A stretch of 64,000 nt of DNA from an uncultured Bacilli bacterium (GCA_934086185.1 CAKOHW010000002.1:31377-95376); one strand, 5' to 3'; shown: positions 16,617 through 55,361, numbered from the stretch's first letter. Notes: generated by a model not told the origin, from the sequence alone. Numbers and translations: made by a program.

Positions 16617-16830
16617 AAAAAAACACGTATATTTCTAAGGACGAAATACCGTGTTACCACCTTAATTCATGTATAATAATACATCTCAATACTTTAACGC
16701 AGTTAACGTAATATTCTACTAAATTCAAATATTCTGCTCCATCGCTACCTTCTATTAATTCATTTATTAGTTTACACCAACCACTAACTCTCTATAAAAC
16801 AAATTAATATACTCCTCAACTTCATTGCAT
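16617..16830 (-). promoter_or_regulatory. T-box leader controlling the HD-valS operon
   Basis: Minus strand shows the stem I motif AGAGAGUUAGUGGUUGGUG (about 16775-16795). The T-box sequence AAUUAAGGUGGUAACACGG lies at about 16649-16667. It overlaps the terminator ACACGGUAUUUCGUCCUUAGAAAUAUACGUGU + U7 (16617-16655). Upstream promoter TTGAAA(16861-16866)-17-TATAAT(16838-16843). Candidate Val specifier GUA at 16746-16748. Confidence 0.85.
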
Positions 16831-16931
16831 TTTCTATATTATAAATTATTTATTTTATTTTTTCAATAAAAACTTATTGAGTTATAAATTATTTTATTAT
16901 ATAATAATTCTAGAATAGAAAGAGGTGTAAT

Positions 16932-18335: not shown

Positions 18336-18358
18336 AAAGCCATAAAAGGCTTTTTTAA
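18334..18358. terminator. bidirectional terminator between the ATPase gene and paralog P1
   Basis: AAAAAGCC-ATAAAA-GGCTTTTTT between convergent genes. Confidence 0.6.
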
Positions 18359-20244
18359 TTTTCTAAAATTTTATACGGATTATCTATTGTTCCATCTCCA
18401 CTCAATAATTGTGAACCAGTAGCTAAAGTAATTGAAGGACGAACAGTTGCAAAAGTTTCTTTAGATTCAAGAGCAAGTAAACTATTATCTATATTTACAT
18501 AAGCAACACTATCACTATATCCATCGAAGAAAAATGAACGAGACAAAGTCCAATATATAGTTTGTGAGTTAGTATATAAATAATTTCCTCTACATGCATT
18601 ATATACTTCGAATGCAATATTTCCAGCATATATAATTTCATCCGCTGTTAATGTTCCTATATAATCACTTACACTATCTTCTTCACTTGAACATTTAAAC
18701 GTAGCAGTTTTATCTCCACCTACACCCATCATTCTTTTTCCTACCAAATAAAGATATCCACTTTTATTATTTTCTAATGTTAATGCTTCATCTGTTGTTA
18801 ATAATGCACCTGTATCATTACTATATTTATAACCATCACTGCCTCCCAAACACCACTTTTCATTTTTTAAATATAATTTCTTATCTTCTAATCCACTTGA
18901 TATATACCATGTTTTTAATGTTGTATATAATCCTCCACTATAATTTTCATAATCAGCATAATATTTGCTATTAATTGTTTTATAACCATATGCTATTTTT
19001 GCCCCATTATTTATTAAAGCAGATGTTGTATCTGATGATGTTATTGTACTACATAACCCCTCTTTTGCTAAGATTATTTTTATACTTCCATCACCTTCTA
19101 CACGTACAACTCTCCAACACATATTATTAAATTCTATATAATTATCTTTTACTCCACCCCTATAATAATAACTATAACCATAATCATCTTCTGCCATAGA
19201 TAATGTTGATTCTGTCGGATATGATACTGCTAACATTTTTTTGATTTTTATTGATACTGAACTTGTACTGCTTACTGGAGCTTCCGTTACTTTATATATA
19301 TTTTCTAAATCCGTCGTTGTTTTTTTAGTATCTGTACTTGATGAATTATTATATACATAATTATCTACTAAATATTTTCCAATTAATGTTTTATTACATG
19401 TTCCGTCATTATACTTGCATGTAGAAACTCCTGTTAATGTGAATTTACCAGTACTTTCATCAACTTTATACCCAGTTCCATATGTCCAATAGTAACCCTG
19501 ATATGTTGTTGAGACATTATATATTAATCTTTCATCTATTTCTTCAGTTGCTCTATCAGTATAGTATTTATAATTAGGTATTTCTTGAGCCGGAATTGTT
19601 AACGGAGTTGCACTAAATGTTGTCCCATTATTTTCTAACTTTGCATTATTTATTATTGCATAAGCTAACGTTGTTGGTTCATATGGCATAAATTCCCCAT
19701 TAATATTCTTACTAAATATTTGTAATTTTGCTTGTAATATTTTTCCCATATCCACACTTTGATCTGTACCTGTATCTTTATATGTGAATGTAAATGTATA
19801 TGTATGTGTTTTTTTAGGCTCTATTTCATTTGTAACTAACTCTTTTATGCCGTTTGGAAAGGTTGTCTCTATTGTTACTTTGTTACATGCTATAGTTCCG
19901 TTAGTACTACAGTCTAATGTATATTTTATATCATCAGTTCTTTCAAATGTATTTACAACATCTATTAAATATAAACCATATTCTATATTTACATTTCCTT
20001 CGTTTTTTACTGTGAATGTTTTAGTATATTCAGTATTACTTGGAAATAAGTTTTCTCCACCTACTACCCCATCACTACCATCATTATATACTAATAATAA
20101 ATCTGCCGCTGTTACATCTATAGATTTATTATTAGTGTTTCCTTGTATTCTTGTTAAATAATATCCATATGTTAAACCAATAAGTGCTAAACTTACTATA
20201 GATATTCCTACAATGCTTATTATTATTTTTTGTTTTCTACTCAT
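18355..20244 (-). CDS. paralog P1: exported protein with a TasA/camelysin-like head (divergent type a) and tail type alpha
   Basis: N-terminus MSRKQKIIISIVGISIVSLALIGLTYGYYLTRIQGNTN resembles a SipW-type signal. Head motifs …KTFTVKNEGN… The C-terminal module …DDYGYSYYYRGGVKDNYIEFNNMCWRVVRVEGDGSIKIIL…YWTLS…VRPSITL… ends in GDGTIDNPYKILEN. Confidence 0.9.
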   Translation of the reverse strand: MSRKQKIIISIVGISIVSLALIGLTYGYYLTRIQGNTNNKSIDVTAADLLLVYNDGSDGVVGGENLFPSNTEYTKTFTVKNEGNVNIEYGLYLIDVVNTFERTDDIKYTLDCSTNGTIACNKVTIETTFPNGIKELVTNEIEPKKTHTYTFTFTYKDTGTDQSVDMGKILQAKLQIFSKNINGEFMPYEPTTLAYAIINNAKLENNGTTFSATPLTIPAQEIPNYKYYTDRATEEIDERLIYNVSTTYQGYYWTYGTGYKVDESTGKFTLTGVSTCKYNDGTCNKTLIGKYLVDNYVYNNSSSTDTKKTTTDLENIYKVTEAPVSSTSSVSIKIKKMLAVSYPTESTLSMAEDDYGYSYYYRGGVKDNYIEFNNMCWRVVRVEGDGSIKIILAKEGLCSTITSSDTTSALINNGAKIAYGYKTINSKYYADYENYSGGLYTTLKTWYISSGLEDKKLYLKNEKWCLGGSDGYKYSNDTGALLTTDEALTLENNKSGYLYLVGKRMMGVGGDKTATFKCSSEEDSVSDYIGTLTADEIIYAGNIAFEVYNACRGNYLYTNSQTIYWTLSRSFFFDGYSDSVAYVNIDNSLLALESKETFATVRPSITLATGSQLLSGDGTIDNPYKILEN

Positions 20245-20275
20245 ATTAACTCAAACTTCCTATCTTTATACTTAA

Positions 20276-20326
20276 AGTTTATCAAATCATTTTATTATTT
20301 ACAATATACAAATTTTGTTTTATACT
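20276..20326. promoter_or_regulatory. back-to-back divergent promoter module (P1 copy)
   Basis: Minus strand: TTGTAA(20299-20304)-17-TGaTAAACT(-10 at 20276-20281). Plus strand: TTTACA(20298-20303)-17-TATACT(20321-20326). The two -35 boxes overlap by 5 nt. Confidence 0.55.
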
Positions 20327-20332
20327 TAATTT

Positions 20333-20400
20333 AGTAGAACATCTAATTGATGGCTACCGTTTTTTTGGTAAGTGCTAATTATTTAATTAGCACTATTTTT
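20333..20400 (+). ncRNA. candidate cis-antisense sRNA (antitoxin-like), copy 1
   Basis: Starts about 7 nt after TATACT. Hairpin GTGCTAATTA/TAATTAGCAC (20372-20393) + TATTTTT acts as a plus-strand terminator. Complementary to the 3' end of the minus-strand small-ORF RNA. Confidence 0.45.
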
Positions 20401-20565
20401 ATGACCAAAACTCCCTATTATCTATATAGAAGGATGAATAGGAATACAATTACCATAATGATAATTGAACAGTCTAAAAACCTTATAATGAAAGTTTTTA
20501 CTTTCAAGCTAAGTACCTACTTTTTCTACTTTAAAAATAGAAGGTAGCCATCAAACCAAATGTTC
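20337..20565 (-). other. structured small-ORF RNA (type I toxin-like mRNA), copy 1
   Basis: Promoter TTGAAA(20596-20601)-16-TATTAT(20574-20579). The 5' arm GAACAUUUGGUUUGAUGGCUACC pairs with the 3' arm GGUAGCCAUCAAUUAGAUGUUC: about 22 bp with 3 G-U pairs, which works only in the minus-strand RNA. Confidence 0.55.
20418..20507 (-). CDS. 29-aa hydrophobic peptide (type I toxin candidate), copy 1
   Basis: TTG start sits in the hairpin UGAAAGU-AAAA-ACUUUCA. Peptide MKVKTFIIRFLDCSIIIMVIVFLFILLYR. Conserved with copy 2 through mostly synonymous or conservative changes. Confidence 0.5.
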   Translation of the reverse strand: MKVKTFIIRFLDCSIIIMVIVFLFILLYR

Positions 20566-20641
20566 AAGACACTATAATACTCATATAATTTATTATTTCA
20601 ATAATTTCGAAAAAACATTACAAAAAAAGAAATTACATAAA

Positions 20642-23600: not shown

Positions 23601-24941
23601 TTAATCAGTATCAAGATAACATATTTGTGAACCATTTCCAATCAGGAATAAAATATTATTATCAAAAATCTCATTTAAAATAGTAGTATCATCCGGATAT
23701 GCCACTTTAGTACTAAGTTGATCCAAATATTCAACATCAGGTGAATATTCTCTTAACGCTATATATCCTATGTTTTCAAACATAGTAGTATGTGTATAAT
23801 AATATAACATATCATCATCAATTAAAGATAAATTTTTACTACAACTCTCTTTATAAGAAGATGTACTATTTATTTTGTTCTTCGCATCAAGTCCAGTAAG
23901 TATTTTTTGGTTACTTTTTAATTCATTAATATACTCACTTTTTAACCAATCATTTATTGTCATGTCCTTATTTATTCTAACTATATAAGGCCCTGAACAT
24001 ATACTACTATTATTTATACAATCACTTAAATGCATATCTCCCAGTGAAGCAGTAATAGGAATGTATAATTTATATTTTTTACTAAGTCCATCACTAACAC
24101 CTGATATTGTTTTTGTTATTGAATTATCTGTTACATTTATATTTATCTCTGCTATTCTACTTGTATCATCTATAGTTATTACATCATCTTCAATTGATTG
24201 TGATTCTCCTTTTTTTATAACTAAATCTGTATTTAAATTTTTAGATGTCTTTCTATTCTTTATTGTTATCTTATGTGTATCTGGTTCTATTCCAACAAAC
24301 TTATATTTTCCATCTACTATCTCACTTGTTTGTTCTTTACTATTGATTACTACATAGTCATTTTCACTAGAATTTGTTACTGTTCCTTGTATAGTAAGTG
24401 CCTTTGTATCAAATATATCTATCTTTGCTTCTAATGTTTTACCCATATCAATACTTTGGTCTACATTCATTTCTTTATATTCTACTTCTATTACATATGT
24501 CTGTACTTCTTTTGAATCAATTTGATTTTCTATTATATATGAGTTTTCATTTGGAAATGTACTTTCACTTACTCCATTACATGTTTTACCAGTTACACTA
24601 CTAGAACATGTTACAGTATATTTTATATCATCTAATCTTGTGAATGTATTTATTACATTTACTAATCCTACACTATAACTATCTACATTATTATCTCCAT
24701 TATTTGTTACGGTAAATGTTTTAGTTCCTAATGTTGTACCTGGTACTATATTTGTTCCAGTTATTACATCACTATTATCACTGTATGTTAGTTCTAGATT
24801 AGCAGTTGATATACTTATTGATTTATTATTAGTATTTCCTTGTATTCTTGTTAAATAATATCCATATGTTAAACCAATAAGTGCTAAACTTATTATACTT
24901 ATTCCTACAATACTTATTATTATTTTATTTTTTCTACTCAT
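23601..24941 (-). CDS. paralog P2: head type b plus unique tail type delta
   Basis: The first ~231 aa are near-identical to P5 and P3 (MSRKNKIIISIVGISIISLALIGLTYGYYLTRIQGNTNNKSISISTANLELTYSD…). The C-terminal ~200 aa are unrelated to the other copies. Confidence 0.9.
   Translation of the reverse strand: MSRKNKIIISIVGISIISLALIGLTYGYYLTRIQGNTNNKSISISTANLELTYSDNSDVITGTNIVPGTTLGTKTFTVTNNGDNNVDSYSVGLVNVINTFTRLDDIKYTVTCSSSVTGKTCNGVSESTFPNENSYIIENQIDSKEVQTYVIEVEYKEMNVDQSIDMGKTLEAKIDIFDTKALTIQGTVTNSSENDYVVINSKEQTSEIVDGKYKFVGIEPDTHKITIKNRKTSKNLNTDLVIKKGESQSIEDDVITIDDTSRIAEININVTDNSITKTISGVSDGLSKKYKLYIPITASLGDMHLSDCINNSSICSGPYIVRINKDMTINDWLKSEYINELKSNQKILTGLDAKNKINSTSSYKESCSKNLSLIDDDMLYYYTHTTMFENIGYIALREYSPDVEYLDQLSTKVAYPDDTTILNEIFDNNILFLIGNGSQICYLDTD
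24248..24941 (-). repeat. head-type-b DNA block (P2 copy)
   Basis: Near-identical to the 5' ~0.7 kb of P5 and P3. The spurious antisense ORFs 24398-24604 and 44086-44292 translate almost identically. Confidence 0.7.
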
Positions 24942-24961
24942 ACAAACTCTCCTTAAACATC

Positions 24962-25028
24962 AAAAAAATTATATAATTATTAGCTCCTGACAAAACTTTT
25001 GTTCAAGAGAGAATTAGGTTATATAATT
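24962..25028 (-). promoter_or_regulatory. conserved leader hairpin + U-tract (terminator/attenuator-like), P2 copy
   Basis: Minus-strand RNA AAUUAUAUAA…CUUGAACAAAAGUUUUGUCAGG…UUAUAUAAUU then U7, ending about 20 nt before the AAGGAGAG SD of P2. Confidence 0.55.
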
Positions 25029-25198
25029 CTGTGCTTTTATAAAATATTTTTTAATTTCGAGTACTTTCTACTCTATATAAACTATATCAAATTTTCTGAA
25101 TTTTGCATAGTATTTTTTATTATTTTTAAAAACGTTTGATCTAATTCATAACTATCAAATCAAATTTAACTTATTATACAATATAAAAACAGATAACA

Positions 25199-32796: not shown

Positions 32797-34719
32797 TTAA
32801 TTCTCTAAAATTTTATACGGATTTGCCTTTGTTCCATTTCCGCTTGAAATTTGTGTATTTGACTTAAAATTAATTACCGGTCTAAATGAGTAGTCATCAT
32901 TAACTCTTCCTCCACTAAATAATCCAGAACTATCAAGCAGATAAACATAATCACCACCGCTTTGATACATAGTAGGTAAGGCATCACTACGATTGCTATC
33001 AAAATCGCTAGGTGCTAAAGTCCAAAACTCTAAGTGACTTGATTTTTGATAATTATTTATTAAATAATAAGCAAGATTTTCAGTATCACCATTATCTCCA
33101 CCTGCAAAAGAAATTTCATCTGCTGTTAAAGTCCCAACATACATATTTGTATTGTCTGCAAACTTTTTCATATTTGTACCCTTACATTTTAGTGTTGGTT
33201 CTTCTGCTGTTCCTTTTCTCAAACGAGTACTAGAATCATAATAAAACCCTTCATTCGCAATTTGTTCATCTAATATTTCAACACTAGTTAATTCTTTTGA
33301 ACTACTAGAGATTAAATACGCTTTATTATTTAAACACCAGTCTCCAACCTTTAAATAAGATAAATAACTCGTTAATAATCCAATTTGAAAATTTTTAAAT
33401 GCAGTTACCATTGATTTATCATTATTTGTTTGTCCGTTTAAATAATTCATTAAATATCTTATACCTCGGTTTTTTTTACCATCAGATGCAGTTAATGTAT
33501 TTGCTGCATATTGTGTATATCCAAAATATCCAGTCTTTATAGACCCACCAGTTGTAGTTGGTATATCCCAATTTCCATCAGCCGTTTCACAAGTACTATC
33601 TTGATCTTCTAATATTAATTTAATACTTCCATCGCCAACAATACGAACCACTTTCCAACACATTCCTGCAAAATTAACATAATTATCAGTTACATTTCCT
33701 CTAAAGTAATAAGAATTACCATAGTCATCAATTGCTAAACTTAATGTTCTTTCATTTTCTCCATTTATTTCTTTTGCTGGTTTAGTTAATGGTGTTTCAC
33801 TATATATCGTTCTTCCTTCTCCACCTTTTTTAGCATTGTTTATTATTACATCTTTCAATAAAATTTTACTATCACTTATTTTTATTACATTTATTGTTAC
33901 AGTACTACCCGTTATTGTTATATCAGCATCTGCTATATTCTTTTCATCGTTGTATGTTATATTTGATCCTGATGCTGATGGTTCTCCTTTTGATACATTT
34001 AGTGTTGTTTGTTTTGTTGTTGTAGTCTTTCTATTTTTTATTGTCACTTTGTGTGTATCTGGTTCTATTCCAATAAACTTATATTTTCCATCTACTATCT
34101 CACTTGTTTGTTCTTTACTATGTATTACTACATAATCATTTTCACTAGAATTAGTTACTGTTCCTTTTATTGTTAATGATTTAGTATCAAATATATCTAT
34201 CTTCGCCTCTAATGTTTTACCCATATCAATACTTTGGTCTACATTCATTTCTCTATATTCTACTTTTATTACATATGTTTGTACTTCATCTTTATTTATT
34301 TGATTTTCTATTATATATGAGTTTTCATTTGGAAATGTACTTTCACTTACTCCATTACATGTTTTACCAGTTACACTACTAGAGCATGTTACTGTATACT
34401 TAACATCATCTAATCTTGTAAATGTATTTATTACATTTACTAATCCTACACTATAACTATCTATATCACTGCTACCACTATTTGTTACTGTAAATGTTTT
34501 TGTAGGTAAAGTTGTACCCGGCACTATATTTGTTCCAGTTATTACATCTTTATTATCGCTATATTCTAATTTTAAATCTGCTGTTGTTACACTTATTGAT
34601 TTTGTATTAGTATTACCTTGTATTCTTGTTAGGAAATATGCGTATGTTAATCCTAATAATGCTAATAATACTATTGCTATTCCTACTACGCTTACAATAA
34701 TTTTTTGCTTTTTATTCAT
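32797..34719 (-). CDS. paralog P3: head type b, shared stalk, tail type beta
   Basis: Head and stalk are near-identical to P5 through about residue 297. The tail (…NYVNFAGMCWKVVRIVGDGSIKLILEDQDSTC…) is homologous to the P6 tail. Ends GNGTKANPYKILEN. Confidence 0.9.
   Translation of the reverse strand: MNKKQKIIVSVVGIAIVLLALLGLTYAYFLTRIQGNTNTKSISVTTADLKLEYSDNKDVITGTNIVPGTTLPTKTFTVTNSGSSDIDSYSVGLVNVINTFTRLDDVKYTVTCSSSVTGKTCNGVSESTFPNENSYIIENQINKDEVQTYVIKVEYREMNVDQSIDMGKTLEAKIDIFDTKSLTIKGTVTNSSENDYVVIHSKEQTSEIVDGKYKFIGIEPDTHKVTIKNRKTTTTKQTTLNVSKGEPSASGSNITYNDEKNIADADITITGSTVTINVIKISDSKILLKDVIINNAKKGGEGRTIYSETPLTKPAKEINGENERTLSLAIDDYGNSYYFRGNVTDNYVNFAGMCWKVVRIVGDGSIKLILEDQDSTCETADGNWDIPTTTGGSIKTGYFGYTQYAANTLTASDGKKNRGIRYLMNYLNGQTNNDKSMVTAFKNFQIGLLTSYLSYLKVGDWCLNNKAYLISSSSKELTSVEILDEQIANEGFYYDSSTRLRKGTAEEPTLKCKGTNMKKFADNTNMYVGTLTADEISFAGGDNGDTENLAYYLINNYQKSSHLEFWTLAPSDFDSNRSDALPTMYQSGGDYVYLLDSSGLFSGGRVNDDYSFRPVINFKSNTQISSGNGTKANPYKILEN
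33828..34719 (-). repeat. head-b + stalk DNA block (P3 copy)
   Basis: About 0.9 kb matching 43741-44629. Antisense ORFs 33836-34135 and 43746-44045 are near-identical. Boundaries are approximate. Confidence 0.7.
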
Positions 34720-34769: not shown

Positions 34770-36644
34770 TCATTCACTAATTAATTCACTTTTTGAGATA
34801 AATCCTTTATATAATTTTGCACCATATACCGATCCATTTCTATTAGAATTGGCAACATTAGTTTTAGACAACATATAAACTGCAATTTTAGAAACTGTTA
34901 TTGAATCATTTGTAATAAAATGCATTACATATTTATCATCATCAACCCATGTATATTTTACTTGAGTTAAATAGTTGTTATTTCCAAAATTGTTAGCAAA
35001 TATAGCAGGATAAATATCAGGATATTCTTCAGTTCCAAATTTTCCATTTAAATATAATGTATATGGTGTATTAGGTTCTAAATTAGAACTTAAATTATAT
35101 TCTTTAATCTTTGTCGTTGTTGCTCCATTATAATTTAATACTTGTTCTTCACCATTAGTTATAAGATTTGTTTTTGCTACGTTATTATTAGAAATAATTG
35201 GAAATCTTGCAGCCATAACCGCTCCATTTGAATATCCATTATTAGAACCAGCGTCAGTAATATCAGAAAATAAATTAATAACTTGAAAGCCAACCAAATT
35301 ATTAGTTGTATTATTAGCATGGTAAACTAATAATCTATCTCCAGGCAATCTATCAACCACAAATGATGCATGAGTAATACCTTTATAATAATTTGATTCA
35401 AATGTAGAAAAGAATATAATATCACCAGGTTTTACATTACTTACATCGTTATTTAATTTATAAGAATAACCATTTTCATCAGCATAGTGTGCTAAATCAT
35501 TAGCCAAATATCTTCCTTCTCTGTATTTATTTGTTGGTAAAGTAATACCATAATCAAAGGATTTTATATTAGTATTATTTGAATTATATCTTGAATCATT
35601 ATAAGTTATACCCCCTAATACTAAACTAAGAAAACTAGAACAATCTAACTCATTTGTAGTAGTAGTATCAAAGGCAGTCTTTGCTGAAGCAAACGTTAAA
35701 TTAGCCATATTATTTCTGTAAGTTTGTGCTACACTGAACATATCAACAATAGTACCTAAAGAATAAGGTGCTAAAAAAGATTCATCATCATAATACGTTA
35801 TTCCACCAATTTCAATAACGTTATTAGAAACATCTAAATCAATTTTTATATTTTTTATATTAGAAGTAATAGTAATAACATTTGCATCTATACTAGCTGT
35901 ATTTCCTTTTTTGATTGTTATTTCTTTACTTTCTTTTACAGTTCCCTGTTTATCTTTTACATATATTGTATGAGTCCCTGGTTCTACTGCTGCTATCAAA
36001 TATTTATTATCTGTTGTTATCATACTTTTTCTCGGGTTGCTATGTAATTCAACATAATCTCCCTCACTTACATTTGTTACTGTTCCTGTTACATCTACAA
36101 TATCTTGTAAATTATAGATTTGTACTCGTGCTGATACTTTCTTATTCATATCATCACTTTGGTCTACATTCATTTCTTTATATGTTACTGTTAATTTATA
36201 TGTTTGTGTTTCTCCTACATCTATTGAATTAGTTACAATTATTCCTGCTAATTTTGGAAATGTTGTTTCATTAACTCCCTTACATGTTTTATTTTCTTTA
36301 CTACTTGTACAAGTTAATGTATAAACCATATCATCAGGCCTTGTTAATTCATTTACTAATTCTTCTAAATATACAGCATAGTTATTTACAGTTGCATTAC
36401 CATTATTTGTTACTGTAAATTCTTTGTCAGTTAATGTAGTACCTGGCATAATATTATTACTTGTTATAGTACCATTACCATCTGCATAAGTTAACTCTAG
36501 ATTAGCAGTTGTTACACTTATTGATTTTTCATTAGTATTCCCTTGTATTCTTGTTAAAAAGTATGCATATGTTAATCCTAACAATGTTAAAAGTACTATT
36601 GTTATTCCTACTGCACTAACAACTATCATTTTTTTTCTTTTCAT
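34770..36644 (-). CDS. paralog P4: head type c fused to an NlpC/P60-like cysteine peptidase module
   Basis: ATG at 36642-36644 with an AAGAGGT SD is preferred over the ORF-track start at 36662. The first ~252 aa are near-identical to P6. The tail has LDCSSFLSLVLGG (Cys), GDIIFFS…THASFVV (His). 50-nt gap to P3. Confidence 0.85.
   Translation of the reverse strand: MKRKKMIVVSAVGITIVLLTLLGLTYAYFLTRIQGNTNEKSISVTTANLELTYADGNGTITSNNIMPGTTLTDKEFTVTNNGNATVNNYAVYLEELVNELTRPDDMVYTLTCTSSKENKTCKGVNETTFPKLAGIIVTNSIDVGETQTYKLTVTYKEMNVDQSDDMNKKVSARVQIYNLQDIVDVTGTVTNVSEGDYVELHSNPRKSMITTDNKYLIAAVEPGTHTIYVKDKQGTVKESKEITIKKGNTASIDANVITITSNIKNIKIDLDVSNNVIEIGGITYYDDESFLAPYSLGTIVDMFSVAQTYRNNMANLTFASAKTAFDTTTTNELDCSSFLSLVLGGITYNDSRYNSNNTNIKSFDYGITLPTNKYREGRYLANDLAHYADENGYSYKLNNDVSNVKPGDIIFFSTFESNYYKGITHASFVVDRLPGDRLLVYHANNTTNNLVGFQVINLFSDITDAGSNNGYSNGAVMAARFPIISNNNVAKTNLITNGEEQVLNYNGATTTKIKEYNLSSNLEPNTPYTLYLNGKFGTEEYPDIYPAIFANNFGNNNYLTQVKYTWVDDDKYVMHFITNDSITVSKIAVYMLSKTNVANSNRNGSVYGAKLYKGFISKSELISE
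35888..36644 (-). repeat. head-type-c DNA block (P4 copy)
   Basis: About 0.75 kb near-identical to 54002-54758. Antisense ORFs 35915-36232 and 54029-54346 are near-identical. Confidence 0.7.
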
Positions 36645-36861
36645 ATTTGTACCTCTTTTCATATTTTAATATCTTTATAATTTAATTATATATAACATCT
36701 AATGATTATTAATGTCAAAAAATGTCATAACACACAAAAAAAATTATATAACTACTTCTATTAATAAATTTAAAATCAGAAAAAATAAATTATATACTAT
36801 TTACTTATCACAACATAAAATTCAAACTCATACTCATAAGAGTACTTTCTACTCTATTTAT

Positions 36862-36912
36862 ATTTTATCAAATCATTTTATTATTTACAATATTAAAATT
36901 TTGGTTTATACT
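36862..36912. promoter_or_regulatory. back-to-back divergent promoter module (P4 copy)
   Basis: Minus strand: TTGTAA(36885-36890)-17-TGaTAAAAT(-10 at 36862-36867). Plus strand: TTTACA(36884-36889)-17-TATACT(36907-36912). Confidence 0.55.
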
Positions 36913-36918
36913 TAATTT

Positions 36919-36990
36919 AGTAGAACATCTAATTGATGGCTACCTGTTTTTTTGAGATATGTGCTAATTATCTAATTAGCACATTTTTTA
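36919..36990 (+). ncRNA. candidate cis-antisense sRNA (antitoxin-like), copy 2
   Basis: Downstream of TATACT. Terminator ATGTGCTAATTA-TC-TAATTAGCACAT + T6 (36959-36990). Confidence 0.45.
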
Positions 36991-37150
36991 AACCAAAACT
37001 CCCTAAAATCTTCGTAAGAGGATATATAGAAAGATGATTAACATTATGATAATCAAACGGTCTAAAAACCTTATGATGAAAGTATTTACTTTCAAACTAA
37101 GTACCTCCTAACTATTTAAAAATAGAAGGTAGCCATCAACTTAAATGTTC
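36923..37150 (-). other. structured small-ORF RNA (type I toxin-like mRNA), copy 2
   Basis: The 5' arm GAACAUUUAAGUUGAUGGCUACC pairs with the 3' arm GGUAGCCAUCAAUUAGAUGUUC. The anti-SD UACCUUCUA pairs with the SD UAGGAGGUA (9 bp). TATTAT -10 at 37159-37164. Confidence 0.55.
37003..37095 (-). CDS. 30-aa hydrophobic peptide (type I toxin candidate), copy 2
   Basis: AGGAGG SD 8 nt before the TTG. Peptide MKVNTFIIRFLDRLIIIMLIIFLYILLRRF. Confidence 0.5.
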   Translation of the reverse strand: MKVNTFIIRFLDRLIIIMLIIFLYILLRRF

Positions 37151-37227
37151 GAGACACTATAATACACTAAAATATTAAAAAATTTGTCACATTTTGAAAA
37201 AACATAAAAAAATAATCAAATTAATGA

Positions 37228-37629
37228 TTATTTTTCTTTGTTTTCTAATTTTTCAGTAATAGATTTCAATACTTCTACTGCAGTTGTTCTAACCTCATCA
37301 GCAGCTTTTTCCATTATTGGAGTTCCTTTTGCTACTGCTAATTTATAAAGTTCTTCACTTTTTTTAACAATTGCTTTTCCTTTTTCTTTAGCAATTTTTA
37401 ATGCTTTTTCTTTATCTAAATCTTCTAATTCTTTTTTTATTTCTTTAATTTGTTTTTCAATAGATTTTTTAACATCCTTAGCATCAATATTTTTAATGCT
37501 TTCTAACATTTCATCTAACTTATTTTTTAATTTCTTTCTAGTTACTTCTCCTTTTTCTGGTGCAAATAGCAATCCTAAACCTACTCCAATTCCAACTCCT
37601 GCAATAACTTTTCCTAAATTTTTACTCAT
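37228..37629 (-). CDS. YtxH-domain protein
   Basis: GKVIAGVGIGVGLGLLFAPEKGEVTRKKL N-terminus followed by a long charged helix. Confidence 0.75.
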   Translation of the reverse strand: MSKNLGKVIAGVGIGVGLGLLFAPEKGEVTRKKLKNKLDEMLESIKNIDAKDVKKSIEKQIKEIKKELEDLDKEKALKIAKEKGKAIVKKSEELYKLAVAKGTPIMEKAADEVRTTAVEVLKSITEKLENKEK

Positions 37630-42475: not shown

Positions 42476-44641
42476 CTAACTTTCTATAATTTTGTATGGA
42501 TTTGAAATAGTACCATTGCCACTTAATAATTTAGTATTTGATAAAAGCACTATCATAGGACGAATACCTATATTATTATTGTTATAATTAGAATCATAGA
42601 TATTTAAATTAAAATTACCTTGCGAAAAAATATAATAAACTCCATCAACACCAAACTCCCCACTATAAGTTGCTCTTGATAAAGACCAATATTTTGTTTG
42701 TGCATTATCATACAAATAATAATTCATATTGTTGAAATCCATTGCACCACCTGCATAAACCATTTCATCTGCTGTTATTGTTCCTATATAATCATCTACA
42801 CTATCTTCTTTATCTGAACATTTATATGATGATTTTTTTTCTTCGCCTTTACCATTCAATCTCTTGGCGGCCATGTAATATACTGTTTGGTTTAGATCCG
42901 GGTATCCTGTAGATTTTCCATTTTCATCAAATATATAGTCAGTTTTTCCGCCTAAACACCATTTTTCATTTTTTAATAGTGATTTTTTATTTTCTAGTCC
43001 GCTTGATATATACCATGTTTTTAATGTTGAGTATAATCCTCCACTATAATTTTTATAATCAGCATATTTCTTGCTATTAACTGTTTTATAACCGTATACA
43101 ACTGTAGCGGCATTATTTATTAAAGCTGATTTGGTATCTGATGATGTTATTGTACTACACAATCCTTCTTTGGCTAAGATTATTTTTATTGAGCCGTCAC
43201 CTTCAATTCTTACAACTCTCCAACACATATTATTGAATTCTATATAATTATCTACAACTCCACCTCTATAATAATAACTTGTTCCATAATCATCTTCTGC
43301 TATTGATAATGTTGATTCTGCTGAATATGATTTTGCTGATAATTTTTTTGTTTTCATTGTTATTGAACTTGTACTACTTGCTGGTGCTGTTGTCACTTTA
43401 TATATATTTGATAAATTCGTTGTTGTTTTTATAGTATCTGTGCTTGATGAATTCGAATTTGCATAATCTGATACCAAATATTTTCCTACTAATGTTGTAT
43501 TACATGTACCATCATTATATTTACATGTTGCTACTCCCGTTAAGGTAAATTTGCCAGTACTTTCATCTATTGTATAACCTGTTCCATATGTCCAGTAATA
43601 TCTTTGATATGTTGTTGTTATACTAATTGATGTTTCTGTTGTTGCTTCATCTACTCGATCAGTATAATATTTCGAAGATGTTTGTTGTGCAGGTGTTGTT
43701 AATGGTATCATTCTAAATGTTGTTCCATTTTTTTCTTGTTTTGCATTGTTTATTATTGCATCTTTCAATAAAATTTTACTATCACTTATTTTTGTTACAT
43801 CTATTGTTACAGTACTACCTGTTATTGTTATATTAGCATCTGCTATATTTTTTTCATCATTGTATGTTATATTTGAACCGGATGCTGCTGGTTCTCCTTT
43901 TGATACATTTAGTGTTGTTTGTTTTGTTGTTGTAGTCTTTCTATTTTTTATTGTTATTTTATGTGTATCTGGTTCTATTCCAATAAACTTATATTTTCCA
44001 TCTACTATCTCACTTGTTTGTTCTTTACTATTGATTACTACATAATCATTCTCACTAGAATTTGTTACTGTTCCTTGTATAGTAAGTGCCTTTGTATCAA
44101 ATATATCTATCTTTGCTTCTAATGTTTTACCCATATCATCACTTTGGTCTACATTCATTTCTTTATATTCTACTTCTATTACATATGTCTGTACTTCATT
44201 TTTATTTATTTGATTCTCTAATATATATGAATTTTCATTTGGAAATGTTGTTTCACTTACACCGTTACATGTTTTACCAGTTACACTACTAGAGCATGTT
44301 ACTGTATATTTTATATCATCTAATCTTGTAAATGTATTTATTACATTTACTAATCCTACACTATAACTATCTACATTATTATCTCCACTATTTGTTACAG
44401 TAAATGTTTTAGTTCCTAATGTTGTACCTGGTACTATATTTGTTCCAGTTATTACGTCACTATTATCACTATATGTTAGTTCTAGATTAGCAGTTGATAT
44501 ACTTATTGATTTATTATTAGTGTTTCCTTGTATTCTTGTTAAATAGTATCCATATGTTAAACCAATAAGTGCTAAACTTATTATACTTATTCCTACAATA
44601 CTTATTATTATCTTATTTTTTCTACTCATATGTAACATCAC
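42476..44641 (-). CDS. paralog P5: chimeric copy (head type b + P3-type stalk + P1-type tail alpha)
   Basis: Residues 5-235 are near-identical to P2, and similarity to P3 continues to about residue 300. The remainder parallels P1 (…YYWTYGTGY…DESTGKFTLTGV…CWRVVRIEGDGSIKIILAKEGLCSTITSSDT…). Probable start is ATG at 44629 or 44638. Confidence 0.9.
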   Translation of the reverse strand: MMLHMSRKNKIIISIVGISIISLALIGLTYGYYLTRIQGNTNNKSISISTANLELTYSDNSDVITGTNIVPGTTLGTKTFTVTNSGDNNVDSYSVGLVNVINTFTRLDDIKYTVTCSSSVTGKTCNGVSETTFPNENSYILENQINKNEVQTYVIEVEYKEMNVDQSDDMGKTLEAKIDIFDTKALTIQGTVTNSSENDYVVINSKEQTSEIVDGKYKFIGIEPDTHKITIKNRKTTTTKQTTLNVSKGEPAASGSNITYNDEKNIADANITITGSTVTIDVTKISDSKILLKDAIINNAKQEKNGTTFRMIPLTTPAQQTSSKYYTDRVDEATTETSISITTTYQRYYWTYGTGYTIDESTGKFTLTGVATCKYNDGTCNTTLVGKYLVSDYANSNSSSTDTIKTTTNLSNIYKVTTAPASSTSSITMKTKKLSAKSYSAESTLSIAEDDYGTSYYYRGGVVDNYIEFNNMCWRVVRIEGDGSIKIILAKEGLCSTITSSDTKSALINNAATVVYGYKTVNSKKYADYKNYSGGLYSTLKTWYISSGLENKKSLLKNEKWCLGGKTDYIFDENGKSTGYPDLNQTVYYMAAKRLNGKGEEKKSSYKCSDKEDSVDDYIGTITADEMVYAGGAMDFNNMNYYLYDNAQTKYWSLSRATYSGEFGVDGVYYIFSQGNFNLNIYDSNYNNNNIGIRPMIVLLSNTKLLSGNGTISNPYKIIES
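43741..44629 (-). repeat. head-b + stalk DNA block (P5 copy)
   Basis: See the P2 and P3 copies. Boundaries are approximate. Confidence 0.7.
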
Positions 44642-44761
44642 TACTTTCCATCATAACTAGTTTATCAATTTTTTTATTCAATTTGAACAAACAACTTTAT
44701 TGTTTTTATTATAAATTACAACTTATGAATAATTTGTCAAATTAAATACTTACAAAAATAC

Positions 44762-44827
44762 AAAAAATCATATAATTATTACCCTCTGACAAAACTTTTG
44801 TTTAAGAGAGTATTAGGCTATATAATT
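44762..44827 (-). promoter_or_regulatory. conserved leader hairpin + U-tract, P5 copy
   Basis: Same element as at 24962-25028. The outer stem carries one G-U pair in the minus-strand RNA (plus-strand T to C at 44769). Confidence 0.5.
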
Positions 44828-44882
44828 CTGTACTTTTATAAAATTGTTTTTTTATTTTCAAGTACTTATCTACTTTAACTAC

Positions 44883-52595: not shown

Positions 52596-54758
52596 TTACG
52601 AAATTTCGTAAGGGTTACTAATGGTCCCATCTCCACCAGTAATTTGTGTACTAGATTTTAAAGAAACTGCTGGACGGAACGAAAATGCACAATCAGTATT
52701 ATTCTCAACATTAACAAAATCAACTACACCACTATGATCTACATTAATTGCAGAATCATGATTATTATTAAAGTGGTAAGGCGACAAAGACCAAAACCAT
52801 AACGAATTTGTTTTTTGATAATCATTTATTAAATAATAATCTGGATTACTATATTTAGCTTTACCACCTGCATATACTATTTCATCTGCTGTTATTGTAC
52901 CTACATACATATCAGTATTATCTGCAAATTTATTCATGTTTGTTCCATTACATTTTAATATTGGTTCTTTTGTTTTTTTACCGTTTAAACGAACATATGA
53001 ATCGTAATAAAATAATGTATTTTTAACTTGTTTATCTAGTATTTCTTGACTAGTTAATGCTGTAGTATTATCACTACTAGTAGCATACGCTTTATCATTT
53101 AAACACCAATCACCTGCTTTTAATTTATCTAAATAATTTGCTAAAGGGCCTGTTTGGAAATTCTTAAATGCATATGCCATTGATCTGTCATCATATGATG
53201 GAATAAATGCACCACCATTTAAATAGTTCATTAAATATCTTGTACTTGAATTTTTTGTCCCATCAGAAGCAATTAATGTTTTTGCATCATGTTGAATATA
53301 TCCAAAATAGCCTTTTTTTAAAGATCCTCCAGTTAAAATAGGAATATTCCAATTTCCATCACTTGTTACACAAGTACTGTCTTGATCTTCCAATATTAAT
53401 TTTACGCTTCCATCACCTTCTATACGTACTATTCTCCAACACATTCCTGCGAAGTTTACATAATTATCTATTACATTTCCTCTATAATAATAACTAGTTC
53501 CGTAATCATCATTAGAAATCGATAATGAAGACTCATATTCTTTTTTTTCAACATCTACAATTGCTACTTTTGTACTTTTGCATGATTTAACATACCAAGT
53601 TTGAGGAACAACAGGATAAGATATATATTTTCCTACTATTGTATTACTACACTCAGATACAAAACTACCATCAGATGAAGTCATCCAAGGTCTTGCATCA
53701 TTTTCTGTTGAACCATAATACCATTCTGATTGTGTACTCATATCGAGTTCTTGTTCTTCAAATTTACCACTATCTCTTGTATAACTTATTTCTTCTGCAA
53801 CTTTTGTTTTTGGAGTATTTAAAAATTCTGTACCATTTGCATTTGTTTTTGCACTTGTGTATATTGCACTTGCAAGTGTTCCTTCATCAAATGGATTATA
53901 ATCTTTTGTTTCACCAATATCTATTGTTAATGTTGAAGCAATTGATTTTATATCAACATTAACTGTTTGTGAATCGTTTGTTACTGTTATATTTGTTCCA
54001 TTTACACTTGCTGTATTTCCTTTTTTGATTGTTATCTCTTTACTTCCTTTTACAGTTCCTTCCTTATCTTTTACATATAGTGTATGTGTTCCTGGTTCTA
54101 CTGCTGCTATTAAATATTTATTATCTGTTGTTATCATACTTTTTCTTGGATTACTATGCATCTCTACATAATCTCCAGCACTTGCATTTGTTACTGTTCC
54201 AGTTACATCTACAATATCTTGTAAATTATAAATCTGTACTCGTGCTGATACTTTCTTATTCATATCATCACTTTGGTCTACTCCCATTTCTTTATATGTT
54301 ACTGTTAATTTATATGTTTGTGTTTCTCCTACTTCTATTGAATTAGTTACAATTATTCCTGCTAATTTTGGAAATGTTGTCTCACTTTTACCTGTACATG
54401 ATCCATTTTCTTTACTACTTGTACAAGTTAGTGTATAAACCATATCATCAGGCCTTGTTAGTTCATTTACTAATTCTTCTAAATATACAGCATAGTTATT
54501 TACAGTTGCATTACCATTATTTGTTACTGTAAATTCTTTGTCAGTTAATGTAGTACCTGGCATAATATTATTACTTGTTATAGTACCATTACCATCTGCA
54601 TAAGTTAATTCTAAATTTGCAGTTGTTACACTGATACTCTTATCATTAGTGTTTCCTTGTATCCTTGTTAAAAAGTATGCATACGTTAATCCTAATAATG
54701 CTAATAATACTATTGTTATTCCTACTACACTAACAATTATTTTTTGTTTTTTGTTCAT
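52596..54758 (-). CDS. paralog P6: head type c, unique middle, tail type beta
   Basis: The first ~252 aa are near-identical to P4. The tail …NYVNFAGMCWRIVRIEGDGSVKLILEDQDSTC… is homologous to P3. Ends GDGTISNPYEIS. Confidence 0.9.
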   Translation of the reverse strand: MNKKQKIIVSVVGITIVLLALLGLTYAYFLTRIQGNTNDKSISVTTANLELTYADGNGTITSNNIMPGTTLTDKEFTVTNNGNATVNNYAVYLEELVNELTRPDDMVYTLTCTSSKENGSCTGKSETTFPKLAGIIVTNSIEVGETQTYKLTVTYKEMGVDQSDDMNKKVSARVQIYNLQDIVDVTGTVTNASAGDYVEMHSNPRKSMITTDNKYLIAAVEPGTHTLYVKDKEGTVKGSKEITIKKGNTASVNGTNITVTNDSQTVNVDIKSIASTLTIDIGETKDYNPFDEGTLASAIYTSAKTNANGTEFLNTPKTKVAEEISYTRDSGKFEEQELDMSTQSEWYYGSTENDARPWMTSSDGSFVSECSNTIVGKYISYPVVPQTWYVKSCKSTKVAIVDVEKKEYESSLSISNDDYGTSYYYRGNVIDNYVNFAGMCWRIVRIEGDGSVKLILEDQDSTCVTSDGNWNIPILTGGSLKKGYFGYIQHDAKTLIASDGTKNSSTRYLMNYLNGGAFIPSYDDRSMAYAFKNFQTGPLANYLDKLKAGDWCLNDKAYATSSDNTTALTSQEILDKQVKNTLFYYDSYVRLNGKKTKEPILKCNGTNMNKFADNTDMYVGTITADEIVYAGGKAKYSNPDYYLINDYQKTNSLWFWSLSPYHFNNNHDSAINVDHSGVVDFVNVENNTDCAFSFRPAVSLKSSTQITGGDGTISNPYEIS
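54002..54758 (-). repeat. head-type-c DNA block (P6 copy)
   Basis: See the P4 copy. Confidence 0.7.
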
Positions 54759-54834
54759 ATTTTTACCTCTTTCCTTCTAATTTTATATTACACTTATAAT
54801 TTATTTGTATAAAATTAAGGTGAGGATGAAATAC

Positions 54835-54906
54835 AAAAAAATTATATAATTATTAACCCCCCCCCCGACCAAACTTTTGTTCGGGAGAGAATTAGGCTAT
54901 ATAATT
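54835..54906 (-). promoter_or_regulatory. conserved leader hairpin + U-tract, P6 copy (contains the C10/G10 tract)
   Basis: Same element. The inner stem is changed to CCCGAAC…GGUCGGG, and the G10 run pairs with CUCUCCC. Confidence 0.5.
54857..54866. repeat. homopolymeric C10 tract (G10 on the coding strand)
   Basis: Ten consecutive C in an extremely AT-rich genome. It replaces the 6-nt GCTCCT/CCCTCT of the paralogous leaders. Confidence 0.9.
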
Positions 54907-54959
54907 CTGTGCTTTTATAAAATATTTTTTAATTCCGAGTACTTTTCTACTCTAGTTAT

Positions 54960-55010
54960 ATTTTACCAAATCATTTTATCATTTACAATATTAAAATTTT
55001 GGTTTATACT
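54960..55010. promoter_or_regulatory. back-to-back divergent promoter module (P6 copy)
   Basis: Minus strand: TTGTAA(54983-54988)-17-TGgTAAAAT(-10 at 54960-54965). Plus strand: TTTACA(54982-54987)-17-TATACT(55005-55010). Confidence 0.55.
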
Positions 55011-55016
55011 TAATTT

Positions 55017-55082
55017 AGTAGAACATTCATTTATTTAAATGCCTACCGTTTGTGGTGGCACACGTACTCGTGTGCTTTTGTT
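55017..55082 (+). ncRNA. candidate cis-antisense sRNA, copy 3 (divergent)
   Basis: Same promoter and the same first ~12 nt (GTAGAACAT). Different body. Terminator GCACACG-TACT-CGTGTGC + TTTTGTT (55058-55082). Confidence 0.4.
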
Positions 55083-55274
55083 ATGTAATAAACAAAACAA
55101 TTAACACATTATGTACTAGTGCCAGTTAAATAAACCTTTACCCCCTGAATAGAAGAAGTATTAGTGTACCCAACATGATTAATATTAATAATCAAATGGA
55201 GGTTTGATTACGCATACTATCACACCCCTTTACTACTTAAATAGTTTGAGGTAAGCACTAAAAAATGAATGTTC
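55021..55274 (-). other. structured small-ORF RNA, copy 3 (same architecture, different sequence)
   Basis: Promoter TTGAAT(55305-55310)-16-TATTAT(55283-55288). The 5' arm GAACAUUCAUUUUUUAGUGCUUACC pairs with the 3' arm GGUAGGCAUUUAAAUAAAUGAAUGUUC (about 25 bp with bulges and G-U pairs). Confidence 0.5.
55138..55215 (-). pseudogene. 25-codon hydrophobic ORF interrupted by an in-frame TGA (toxin-like, possibly inactivated)
   Basis: AAGGGG SD 9 nt before the ATG. Reads MRNQTSI-TGA-LLILIMLGTLILLLFRG-TAA. TGA at 55192-55194. Confidence 0.35.
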
Positions 55275-55361
55275 GAGTAGTTATAATACTCATATATTTT
55301 ATTTATTCAATCATTTCGACAAAACATTAAAAAAAAGATATCTTACATTAGATATCTAATT

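Follow-up and report, generated by a model that had tools for sequence, protein, structure and literature searches.

[quoted passage not shown] In the bsrG mRNA, binding of SR4 at the 3′ end lengthens the helix that sequesters the SD from 4 to 8 bp (PMC3834814). The antisense RNA lies at the 3′ side in the Gram-positive families, whereas in the Gram-negative systems hok/sok and aapA/IsoA it covers the ORF or is placed on the 5′ side (PMC8594479). A 2025 paper states that the known type I families are drawn from few phyla only (PMC12390103). Systems of this type are hard to find because their peptides and their RNAs both escape annotation.

The DNA analysed here, a stretch of 64,000 nt referred to below as the window, is part of the chromosome of an uncultured gut Bacilli bacterium with a G+C content of 24% and the standard genetic code. 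Neighbouring genes in the source genome include mutL, genes for GTPases, ytxH and the rnf genes. An element repeated in this DNA had been described as present in two copies, the second at 36,884–37,164. A repeat search of the window added a third, divergent copy to that picture, and the span given for the second copy proved too small for the conserved module. The repeated module has a size of about 320 bases, and its copies in the window are as follows.

20261..20601, minus strand: copy 1 (type A)
about 36847 to about 37200, minus strand: copy 2 (type A)
about 54945-55320, minus strand: copy 3 (type B, divergent)

Copies 1 and 2 share 86% identity across about 410 nt. Each 24–25-nt stem arm occurs exactly twice in the window, against an expectation of 0, and as the predicted folds (below) are also far more stable than those of shuffled sequences, the repeat is not due to chance. 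The element is, with a probability that we put at about 0.6, a chromosomal type I toxin–antitoxin module of an undescribed family. This reading is built from sequence and modelling: the coding constraint on a small ORF, the features of its peptide, the folded mRNA, the antisense signals and a predicted switch, together with paralogue-like behaviour (multiple copies, two cores in one scaffold, joint decay and an unannotated ORF) and the published hallmarks of such systems.

Altogether, 33 copies were collected, three from the window and 30 from gut metagenomes or one MAG, and these represent 23 distinct sequences (copy 2 of the window has the same sequence as L034 and L035; L034–L038 were obtained from the Hadza and Nepal cohorts). 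A 22-mer taken from the block of highest conservation retrieved five copies in one 'uncultured Bacilli bacterium' MAG (Hadza gut samples), and a 20-mer search retrieved two further copies in metagenome contigs. The same 20-mer also gave two chance matches in a coding region (L008, L009), and this coding-region match was the sole one returned by a scan of viral contigs. A BLAST search of plasmid and phage records with the element gave no match. Copy 2 lies directly after ytxH, and further copies were sought by fetching the contigs of YtxH homologues. The element is present after ytxH in lineages with a YtxH identity of 88–100%, while in those with an identity of 73–84% rpoZ directly follows ytxH and the element is absent throughout the fetched DNA, so that no member of the family was obtained from outside one narrow clade. 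A single locus accounts for many of the copies, as its strain variants; given this and the narrow clade, the collection represents few independent events, which was counted against the type I reading. Six of the first ten copies immediately precede members (or leaders) of a single family of paralogous genes, and other copies adjoin unrelated genes (an ATPase gene, xseA, IS elements).

The copies fall into two types, A and B, with promoters and an outer stem in common around cores that resist alignment to each other. Shared by all copies are the upstream promoter region, the outer segments of both arms (GAACAUU in the 5′ arm, AAUGUUC in the 3′ arm) and about 60 nt beyond the 3′ arm on its downstream side; the type-specific part is the central ~200 nt. 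The type A peptide has the pattern MKV[KN]TFIIRFLDRLIIIM[LI]IIFLYILL[RQ]R[LF], and that of type B the pattern MRNQ[TA]FERLLIL[IL]MLSTLILLLFRG, the latter preceded by the SD AGGGGU and starting with ATG. The type B core thus retains an SD, a start codon and a hydrophobic ORF of 25 codons. The peptides of both types are built alike: the N-terminus is polar, the next part is a hydrophobic stretch some 15 residues long, and the end is basic. Homology between them was considered and rejected, as BLASTP gives no alignment and only the architecture is shared; this too was counted against the type I reading.

Several copies occur per genome, at differing and unrelated intergenic sites; contigs often end at the element, and the flanking DNA differs between strains and includes DDE transposases. 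Together with a 22-bp inverted repeat present in all complete copies, these features would suit a MITE-like or promoter-carrying mobile repeat, with the stem as its terminal inverted repeats and the ORF as a remnant. We consider this highly improbable. On either side, the conserved sequence runs on past the inverted repeat for about 60 nt and takes in promoters on both strands, which makes the repeats internal rather than terminal; no terminal repeat is seen at the true ends of the module, and the selection in the ORF frame described below would be left unexplained.

The features assigned to the peptide gene, mainly in copy 2, are listed here in the order in which the mRNA would be transcribed, followed by their counterparts in the other window copies.

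37159..37190, minus strand: putative mRNA promoter of copy 2, with the -10 box TATTAT (37164..37159) and GTGACA 20 nt upstream
37128..37150, minus strand: 5′ arm of the closing stem, GAACAUUUAAGUUGAUGGCUACC, from the predicted folds
37123..37131, minus strand: anti-SD, UACCUUCUA, which pairs with the SD in predicted folds
37102..37110, minus strand: SD region, UAGGAGGUA, with AGGAGG at 37109..37104, 8 nt upstream of the TTG
37003..37095, minus strand: ORF of copy 2 (ORF listing), 30 codons plus stop, TTG start, MKVNTFIIRFLDRLIIIMLIIFLYILLRRF
36984..36959, minus strand: perfect hairpin between the ORF and the 3′ arm, followed by an A-rich stretch
36923..36944, minus strand: 3′ arm of the closing stem, GGUAGCCAUCAAUUAGAUGUUC, which pairs with the 5′ arm and is the target of the predicted antisense RNA
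20601..20574 and 55310..55283, minus strand: putative mRNA promoters of copies 1 and 3, TTGAAA/TTGAAT-16-TATTAT
20507..20418, minus strand: ORF of copy 1 (ORF listing), 29 aa

The TTG-initiated ORF of 30 codons behind an AGGAGG SD, at 37095..37003 on the minus strand, is present as the original prediction had it. The promoter scan found no canonical -35 box in the putative mRNA promoter of copy 2, a point that counts against the type I reading. The copy 2 peptide has a GRAVY value of 1.57 and one predicted membrane helix. Across both types the peptides are 25–30 aa in length, with GRAVY values of 1.0–1.9, a 15-residue window of about 3 and basic C-terminal residues, and the SD is placed 7–8 nt from a TTG or ATG start, which is a correct spacing in both types. 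The small ORF is annotated by gene callers in none of the sources, and an exact look-up of the peptide returned no called gene.

A codon-by-codon comparison of copies 1 and 2 reproduced exactly the six synonymous differences reported earlier (ATT/ATC, ATT/ATA, ATT/ATC, TTC/TTT, CTT/CTC and CTA/TTA). The total of 13 differing codons also holds when sense codons are counted (six synonymous and seven not), and the displaced stop codon makes it 14 positions. The non-synonymous differences are K/N, C/R, S/L, V/L, V/I, F/Y and Y/R; the description of these as mostly conservative applies to four of the seven and fails for the other three. With more copies at hand, the purifying selection proposed for the peptide was supported. 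Pairwise dN/dS values among type A copies range from 0.06 to 0.51 (Nei–Gojobori), and on a parsimony tree of the eight distinct intact type A ORFs the codon changes are 15 synonymous to 12 non-synonymous, where 22.7% synonymous would be expected (P = 2e-4). On the same tree, nucleotide changes are distributed over the three codon positions as 7/4/20 (P = 4e-4). The other two sense frames give synonymous to non-synonymous ratios of 4:21 and 4:24, and two of the antisense frames give 3:24 and 2:23. The remaining antisense frame, which shares third positions with the ORF, scores fairly well (11:17) and was counted against the type I reading; this value is what would be expected for a shadow of the true frame, and the frame is that of a plus-strand ORF that is broken in most copies. 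In copy 1 the plus-strand ORF (20347-20547, 66 aa) is open, and its copy 2 counterpart is broken into two pieces, 36933-37037 and 37034-37111, in agreement with the truncation noted originally. When the 66-aa product was used as a query, no miscalled genes were found over the other copies. Two further comparisons concern close relatives: between copy 2 and the near-orthologous L007 six ORF positions differ, each of them a third codon position, and the two intact type B copies differ by three synonymous codons (one of which, TTA/CTT, involves two bases) and two conservative replacements. Since the synonymous excess and the third-position bias are specific to the ORF frame, a translated peptide, under purifying selection in its own frame only, is supported by the sequence comparisons.

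The predicted mRNA of copy 2 folds with -74.8 kcal/mol, compared with -40.0 +/- 4.5 for shuffled sequences (z = -7.75), and its 5′ arm, which starts 1–3 nt from the predicted 5′ end, pairs with the 3′ arm over 22 bp with one bulge. Copy 1 has the same closing stem (z = -8.80 versus shuffled sequences). Both the sequences and the folds confirm that two G-U pairs of this stem in copy 1 are two A-U pairs in copy 2, against an identical 3′ arm. The closing stem of copy 3 extends over 25 bp, and the type B fold is like that of type A (25-bp clamp, z = -7.42). When 20 pairs of the 5′–3′ clamp were scored in nine copies of both types, 97.8% of the cells were paired, including three compensatory pairs, compared with 30–44% in controls in which the partner columns were slid. 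Two copies, L033 and L036, keep the ORF and SD while their clamps reach only -14.5 kcal/mol, compared with -26 to -32 kcal/mol; this was counted against the type I reading and indicates that the inner clamp is not essential.

Within the clamp, the anti-SD and the SD region (UACCUUCUA/UAGGAGGUA) can form a helix of 9 bp in copy 2. This length agrees with the original prediction, although the helix had been called perfect and consists of eight Watson–Crick pairs and one G-U. The anti-SD overlaps the inner end of the 5′ arm by its first four bases, and a small AU hairpin lies between anti-SD and SD in this copy. The SD itself is kept in the intact type A copies, with the exception of window copy 1 (weak GUAGGU). 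Six core pairs of the helix are kept in nine of nine aligned copies; the changes are one-sided only, without compensatory pairs, which was counted against the type I reading. In predicted folds the helix measures 9 bp in type A and 5–6 bp in type B, and it is predicted in the nascent, the 3′-arm-blocked and the antisense-bound states. The unpaired probability of the SD is 0.19–0.51 in full-length folds of eight copies (0.01 in L001) and 0.00–0.20 when the 3′ arm is blocked; eight of the nine copies show this drop, and the decayed L004 has 0.19 in both states. In predicted folds of the nascent transcript it is 0.00–0.21. A second anti-SD, downstream of the hairpin on the 3′ side, was also considered and rejected, as only 4–5 bp are possible and these are not conserved.

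The ORF is disrupted in six of the 33 copies, and two more probably lack a start (8/33), which counts against the type I reading. The lesions are listed by copy.

L002: +1 insertion at codon 3
Window copy 3: in-frame TGA at codon 8, frame MRNQTSI*LLILIMLGTLILLLFRG
L004: 4-nt deletion and an early stop
L022: cut off at codon 9 by foreign DNA
L031 and L032: TTT in place of the TTG start, with a weakened SD
L005 and L030: very likely the same TTG change, the start region being cut off or gapped

Most copies with a disrupted ORF also show decay in the SD, in the stem or in the antisense promoter. In L004 the damage extends to the outermost pair of the stem, to the stem of the terminator and to the -35 box of the antisense promoter. 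The lineage of L005 and L030–L032 has changes in that -35 box and in the inner 5′ arm, together with the radical peptide replacements D12Y, I16N and R9S. From their sequences, the disrupted copies look like losses of whole modules rather than cases of an RNA persisting without its ORF. The one clear exception is window copy 3, which has a stop codon and an intact structure. Reading TGA as tryptophan would rescue this copy and was rejected, since five of 47 long ORFs end in TGA and Trp is always TGG.

These copies bear on a different explanation, in which the element would be a non-coding structured RNA, or the 5′ leader of the paralogues, with an incidental ORF and with clamp and hairpins regulating read-through. 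Frequent disruption of the ORF while the RNA structure persists had been named at the outset as the pattern that would point this way; it is found in part, as there are six disrupted copies and the structure is clearly intact only in window copy 3. The very stable structure, the two probably start-less copies and the minus strand downstream of the clamp agree with such an RNA: no intrinsic terminator was found on this strand between the 3′ arm and the next gene (also counted against the type I reading), so that the peptide mRNA may read through into the downstream gene. We nevertheless regard a non-coding element as improbable, because the synonymous excess and third-position bias are specific to the ORF frame, SD and start are kept in two unalignable cores, the downstream genes vary between copies and strains, the only terminator of the module faces the other strand, and Rfam returned no match.

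That terminator belongs to a predicted antisense RNA gene that was absent from the original prediction and that changes the likeliest identity of the element. Its features in the three window copies are as follows.

36884..36912, plus strand: antisense promoter of copy 2, TTTACA-17-TATACT (promoter scan, 10/12 matches)
20298-20326 and 54982-55010, plus strand: antisense promoters of copies 1 and 3 (10/12 matches each)
36919..36990, plus strand: predicted antisense RNA of about 70 nt in copy 2 (putative antitoxin; inferred ends)
36959-36984, plus strand: antisense terminator of copy 2, hairpin followed by a T run (0.0 expected)
20371-20394 and 55057-55076, plus strand: antisense terminators of copies 1 and 3

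In both types, almost all complete copies carry the promoter TTTACA-17-TATACT without a change. The intrinsic terminator follows about 50 nt past the promoter and, in the window copies, is the only one per region, where 0.0–0.1 would be expected. A plus-strand terminator is always present, formed by one of three unrelated hairpin sequences (type A, the L002 variant and type B). A bidirectional terminator was considered and rejected: on the mRNA strand, A runs flank the hairpin on both sides, and the hairpin therefore terminates the plus strand only. Over its first ~26 nt the predicted antisense RNA is exactly complementary to the 3′ arm; a U-rich stretch and the terminator follow. The RNA resembles the mRNA's own 5′ arm, yet would pair without bulges or wobbles; it is also perfectly complementary to the hairpin in the 3′ UTR, and it does not overlap the ORF. 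Folded by itself, it is predicted to be loosely structured in its 5′ part, ahead of the terminator. Cofolding of mRNA and antisense RNA gave ddG values of -46 to -70 kcal/mol across copies (-51 for copy 2), with the clamp opened and the anti-SD/SD helix formed.

A type I module with these parts could work as follows. The 5′ end of the minus-strand mRNA would pair with a segment about 200 nt downstream in a clamp of 22–25 bp, enclosing an ORF of 25–30 codons for a hydrophobic single-helix peptide, the presumed membrane toxin. An anti-SD located 12–14 nt upstream of the SD could close it, and four to five bases of this anti-SD also belong to the inner end of the clamp. In the nascent mRNA the anti-SD hairpin would keep the transcript silent, and the completed mRNA would be clamped end to end and partly translatable; the clamp probably also shields both mRNA ends from exonucleases. 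The plus-strand antisense RNA of about 70 nt, made from its own promoter and ended by its own terminator, would invade the 3′ arm and displace the 5′ arm, and the freed anti-SD would then close the SD fully and block translation. It is also probable that the long RNA duplex makes the mRNA a target of RNase III. The production of both RNAs, the toxicity of the peptide, its neutralisation by the antisense RNA and the roles of the RNases are what we infer in proposing this scheme.

The same coding and antisense evidence would serve a translated small membrane protein that is not a toxin and has a cis-antisense regulator which only tunes its level, for example a membrane or secretion accessory tied to the adjacent secreted-protein paralogues. 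This is the main rival to a type I module, and we judge it unlikely. Its additional evidence comes from the placement of six of the first ten copies upstream of the paralogue family and from the family promoter, whose -35 box lies inside the module, as at the copy 2 locus.

34770-36662: downstream paralogous gene at the copy 2 locus
36862..36890, minus strand: promoter-like site TTGTAA-17-TAAAAT (with TG), pointing at gene 34770-36662

An accessory role of this kind is at odds with the copies that adjoin unrelated genes (the ATPase gene, xseA and IS elements) and with the lack of the element in the closest related species examined; moreover, multiple copies, frequent decay, heavy translational locking and a stable clamp typify toxins and not housekeeping proteins. 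The -35 box of the promoter-like site overlaps that of the antisense promoter, back to back, and in strains with other downstream DNA the module boundary falls between the -35 box and spacer of this site and its -10 box. On the basis of the overlapping -35 boxes, the module could conceivably be a portable control unit in which transcription of the antitoxin and expression of the large family of secreted-protein paralogues are mutually exclusive, a suggestion that we regard as quite doubtful. If true, it would couple a clamp-and-decoy RNA switch, with the antisense RNA imitating the 5′ arm of the mRNA, to an on/off choice among surface or secreted protein variants.

Databases of known families returned little for the element. 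Searches of Pfam and NCBIfam gave no match to a toxin family at E-values up to 10 (including none to HOK_GEF or Fst_toxin), which was counted against the type I reading; the only Pfam line was copy 1 against Baculo_11_kDa (E = 1.8, 8.6 bits compared with a cut-off of 28.4), and NCBIfam gave none. Rfam gave nothing at the gathering score and only chance-level matches at E-values up to 10, with no match to fstAT. A phmmer search of 1.84 billion representative proteins with the peptide had 0 matches. Judged by these comparisons, the element is outside every catalogued family compared (Fst/RNAII, TxpA/RatA, BsrG/SR4, Hok/Sok, Ldr, Ibs, TisB and others).

If the type I reading holds, the element would leave the understanding of the class unchanged and would add to it a family, found by sequence alone, whose source is an uncultured, AT-rich lineage of human-gut Bacilli. 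The occurrence of two cores in one regulatory scaffold would provide a natural test of the specificity of cognate pairs, and the layout a simple model of how binding at the 3′ end shuts a ribosome-binding site about 180 nt away.

Of the described systems, bsrG/SR4 of B. subtilis and its relatives txpA/RatA, bsrE/SR5 and yonT/SR6 resemble the element as predicted here: the toxin ORF is small and hydrophobic, the antisense RNA converges on the toxin mRNA and overlaps its 3′ part, and the long duplex would suit RNase III. As in bsrG/SR4, the SD would be remodelled by antisense binding at a distance, here from a partly formed helix to a predicted 9 bp. There is no similarity to this group in sequence or profile, whether of peptide or RNA, and in contrast to these systems the predicted antisense RNA does not overlap the ORF. 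It would target one arm of a clamp, competing with the mRNA's own 5′ end, and we know of no such 5′–3′ clamp for bsrG. With fst/RNAII (par of pAD1) and SprA1/SprA1as the element, as predicted, has in common a Gram-positive setting, peptides of about 30 aa and an SD sequestered by 5′ structure, as well as an antisense RNA at the 3′ side without overlap of the ORF (PMC8594479). In those systems, however, functional pairing occurs close to the 5′ region of the mRNA and not in the overlap, and a single bidirectional terminator serves both genes, whereas here pairing would be within the overlap and the hairpin terminates the plus strand only. The Gram-negative systems hok/sok and aapA/IsoA (Helicobacter) are likewise found in multiple chromosomal copies, some of them decayed, and have a counterpart to the 5′–3′ long-distance helix that is conserved across copies here. 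In hok and AapA, removal of the 3′ arm activates translation, while its loss here is predicted to close the SD further, and the antisense RNA here would target the 3′ arm itself. As modelled, the element is a combination of a hok/AapA-like clamp with a Bacillus-like 3′ antisense RNA.

Six paralogous genes encoding proteins of 446-721 aa lie in the window, all on the minus strand, and they have long repeated DNA stretches in common:
18355-20244, minus strand, paralogue with the common repeated stretches
23601-24941, minus strand, paralogue with the common repeated stretches
32797-34719, minus strand, paralogue with the common repeated stretches
34770-36662, minus strand, paralogue with the common repeated stretches
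42476-44641, minus strand, paralogue with the common repeated stretches
52596-54758, minus strand, paralogue with the common repeated stretches

The N-termini of all six are hydrophobic and similar to a SipW-type signal peptide (…GLTYAYF…). A Pfam scan of four paralogues returned no credible match, the sole line being fn3_3 in 52596-54758, which fell under the cut-off. The element is directly upstream of three of the six genes. The -35 box of its antisense promoter (TTTACA, plus strand) and that of the downstream paralogue promoter (TTGTAA, minus strand) are arranged back to back with a 5-base overlap, and these promoters may be in competition for RNA polymerase. The pair of promoters, antisense plus downstream-paralogue, occurs at three places:
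36862-36912, promoter pair with overlapping -35 boxes
20276-20326, promoter pair with overlapping -35 boxes
54960-55010, promoter pair with overlapping -35 boxes

In related species (fetched loci L010-L018), ytxH leads directly to rpoZ, rlmN, a PP2C phosphatase and a PASTA kinase, whereas in the window's species (compared at 36662-37629) this ytxH-rpoZ synteny is broken, with the element and two of the paralogues lying in between. Strains of the same species also differ in the DNA that immediately follows the element (ytxH-locus variants L019-L028, L030 and L040), which may be a paralogue leader, a DDE_Tnp_1 transposase, an HTH protein or a P-type ATPase, depending on the strain. Contig ends coincide with the element in many of these variants, and in one (L022) foreign DNA is inserted at codon 9 of the element ORF. 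The element site at the ytxH locus looks like a rearrangement hot spot.

The only Rfam family reaching gathering score in the window was a T-box leader (16634-16834, minus strand, 121.6 bits). Besides the element there is a second conserved stretch, a leader of ~100 nt, which had no match in Rfam and may be an unknown cis-regulatory leader; it sits downstream of the paralogue promoter and ahead of the start of the gene:
24955-25052, ~100-nt paralogue leader
44754-44851, ~100-nt paralogue leader
54833-54930, ~100-nt paralogue leader
L001 and L019 (metagenomic or MAG loci), ~100-nt paralogue leader downstream of the element

The copy at 54833-54930, upstream of 52596-54758, carries ten consecutive G (read as C10 on the plus strand) at 54857-54866, within the 3' arm of its inner hairpin, where the other copies have AGGAG or AGAGG; this tract could be prone to slippage, altering the hairpin. 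With its 12-bp AU-rich outer stem and inner GC hairpin, followed by a T run, the leader looks like an attenuator or terminator.
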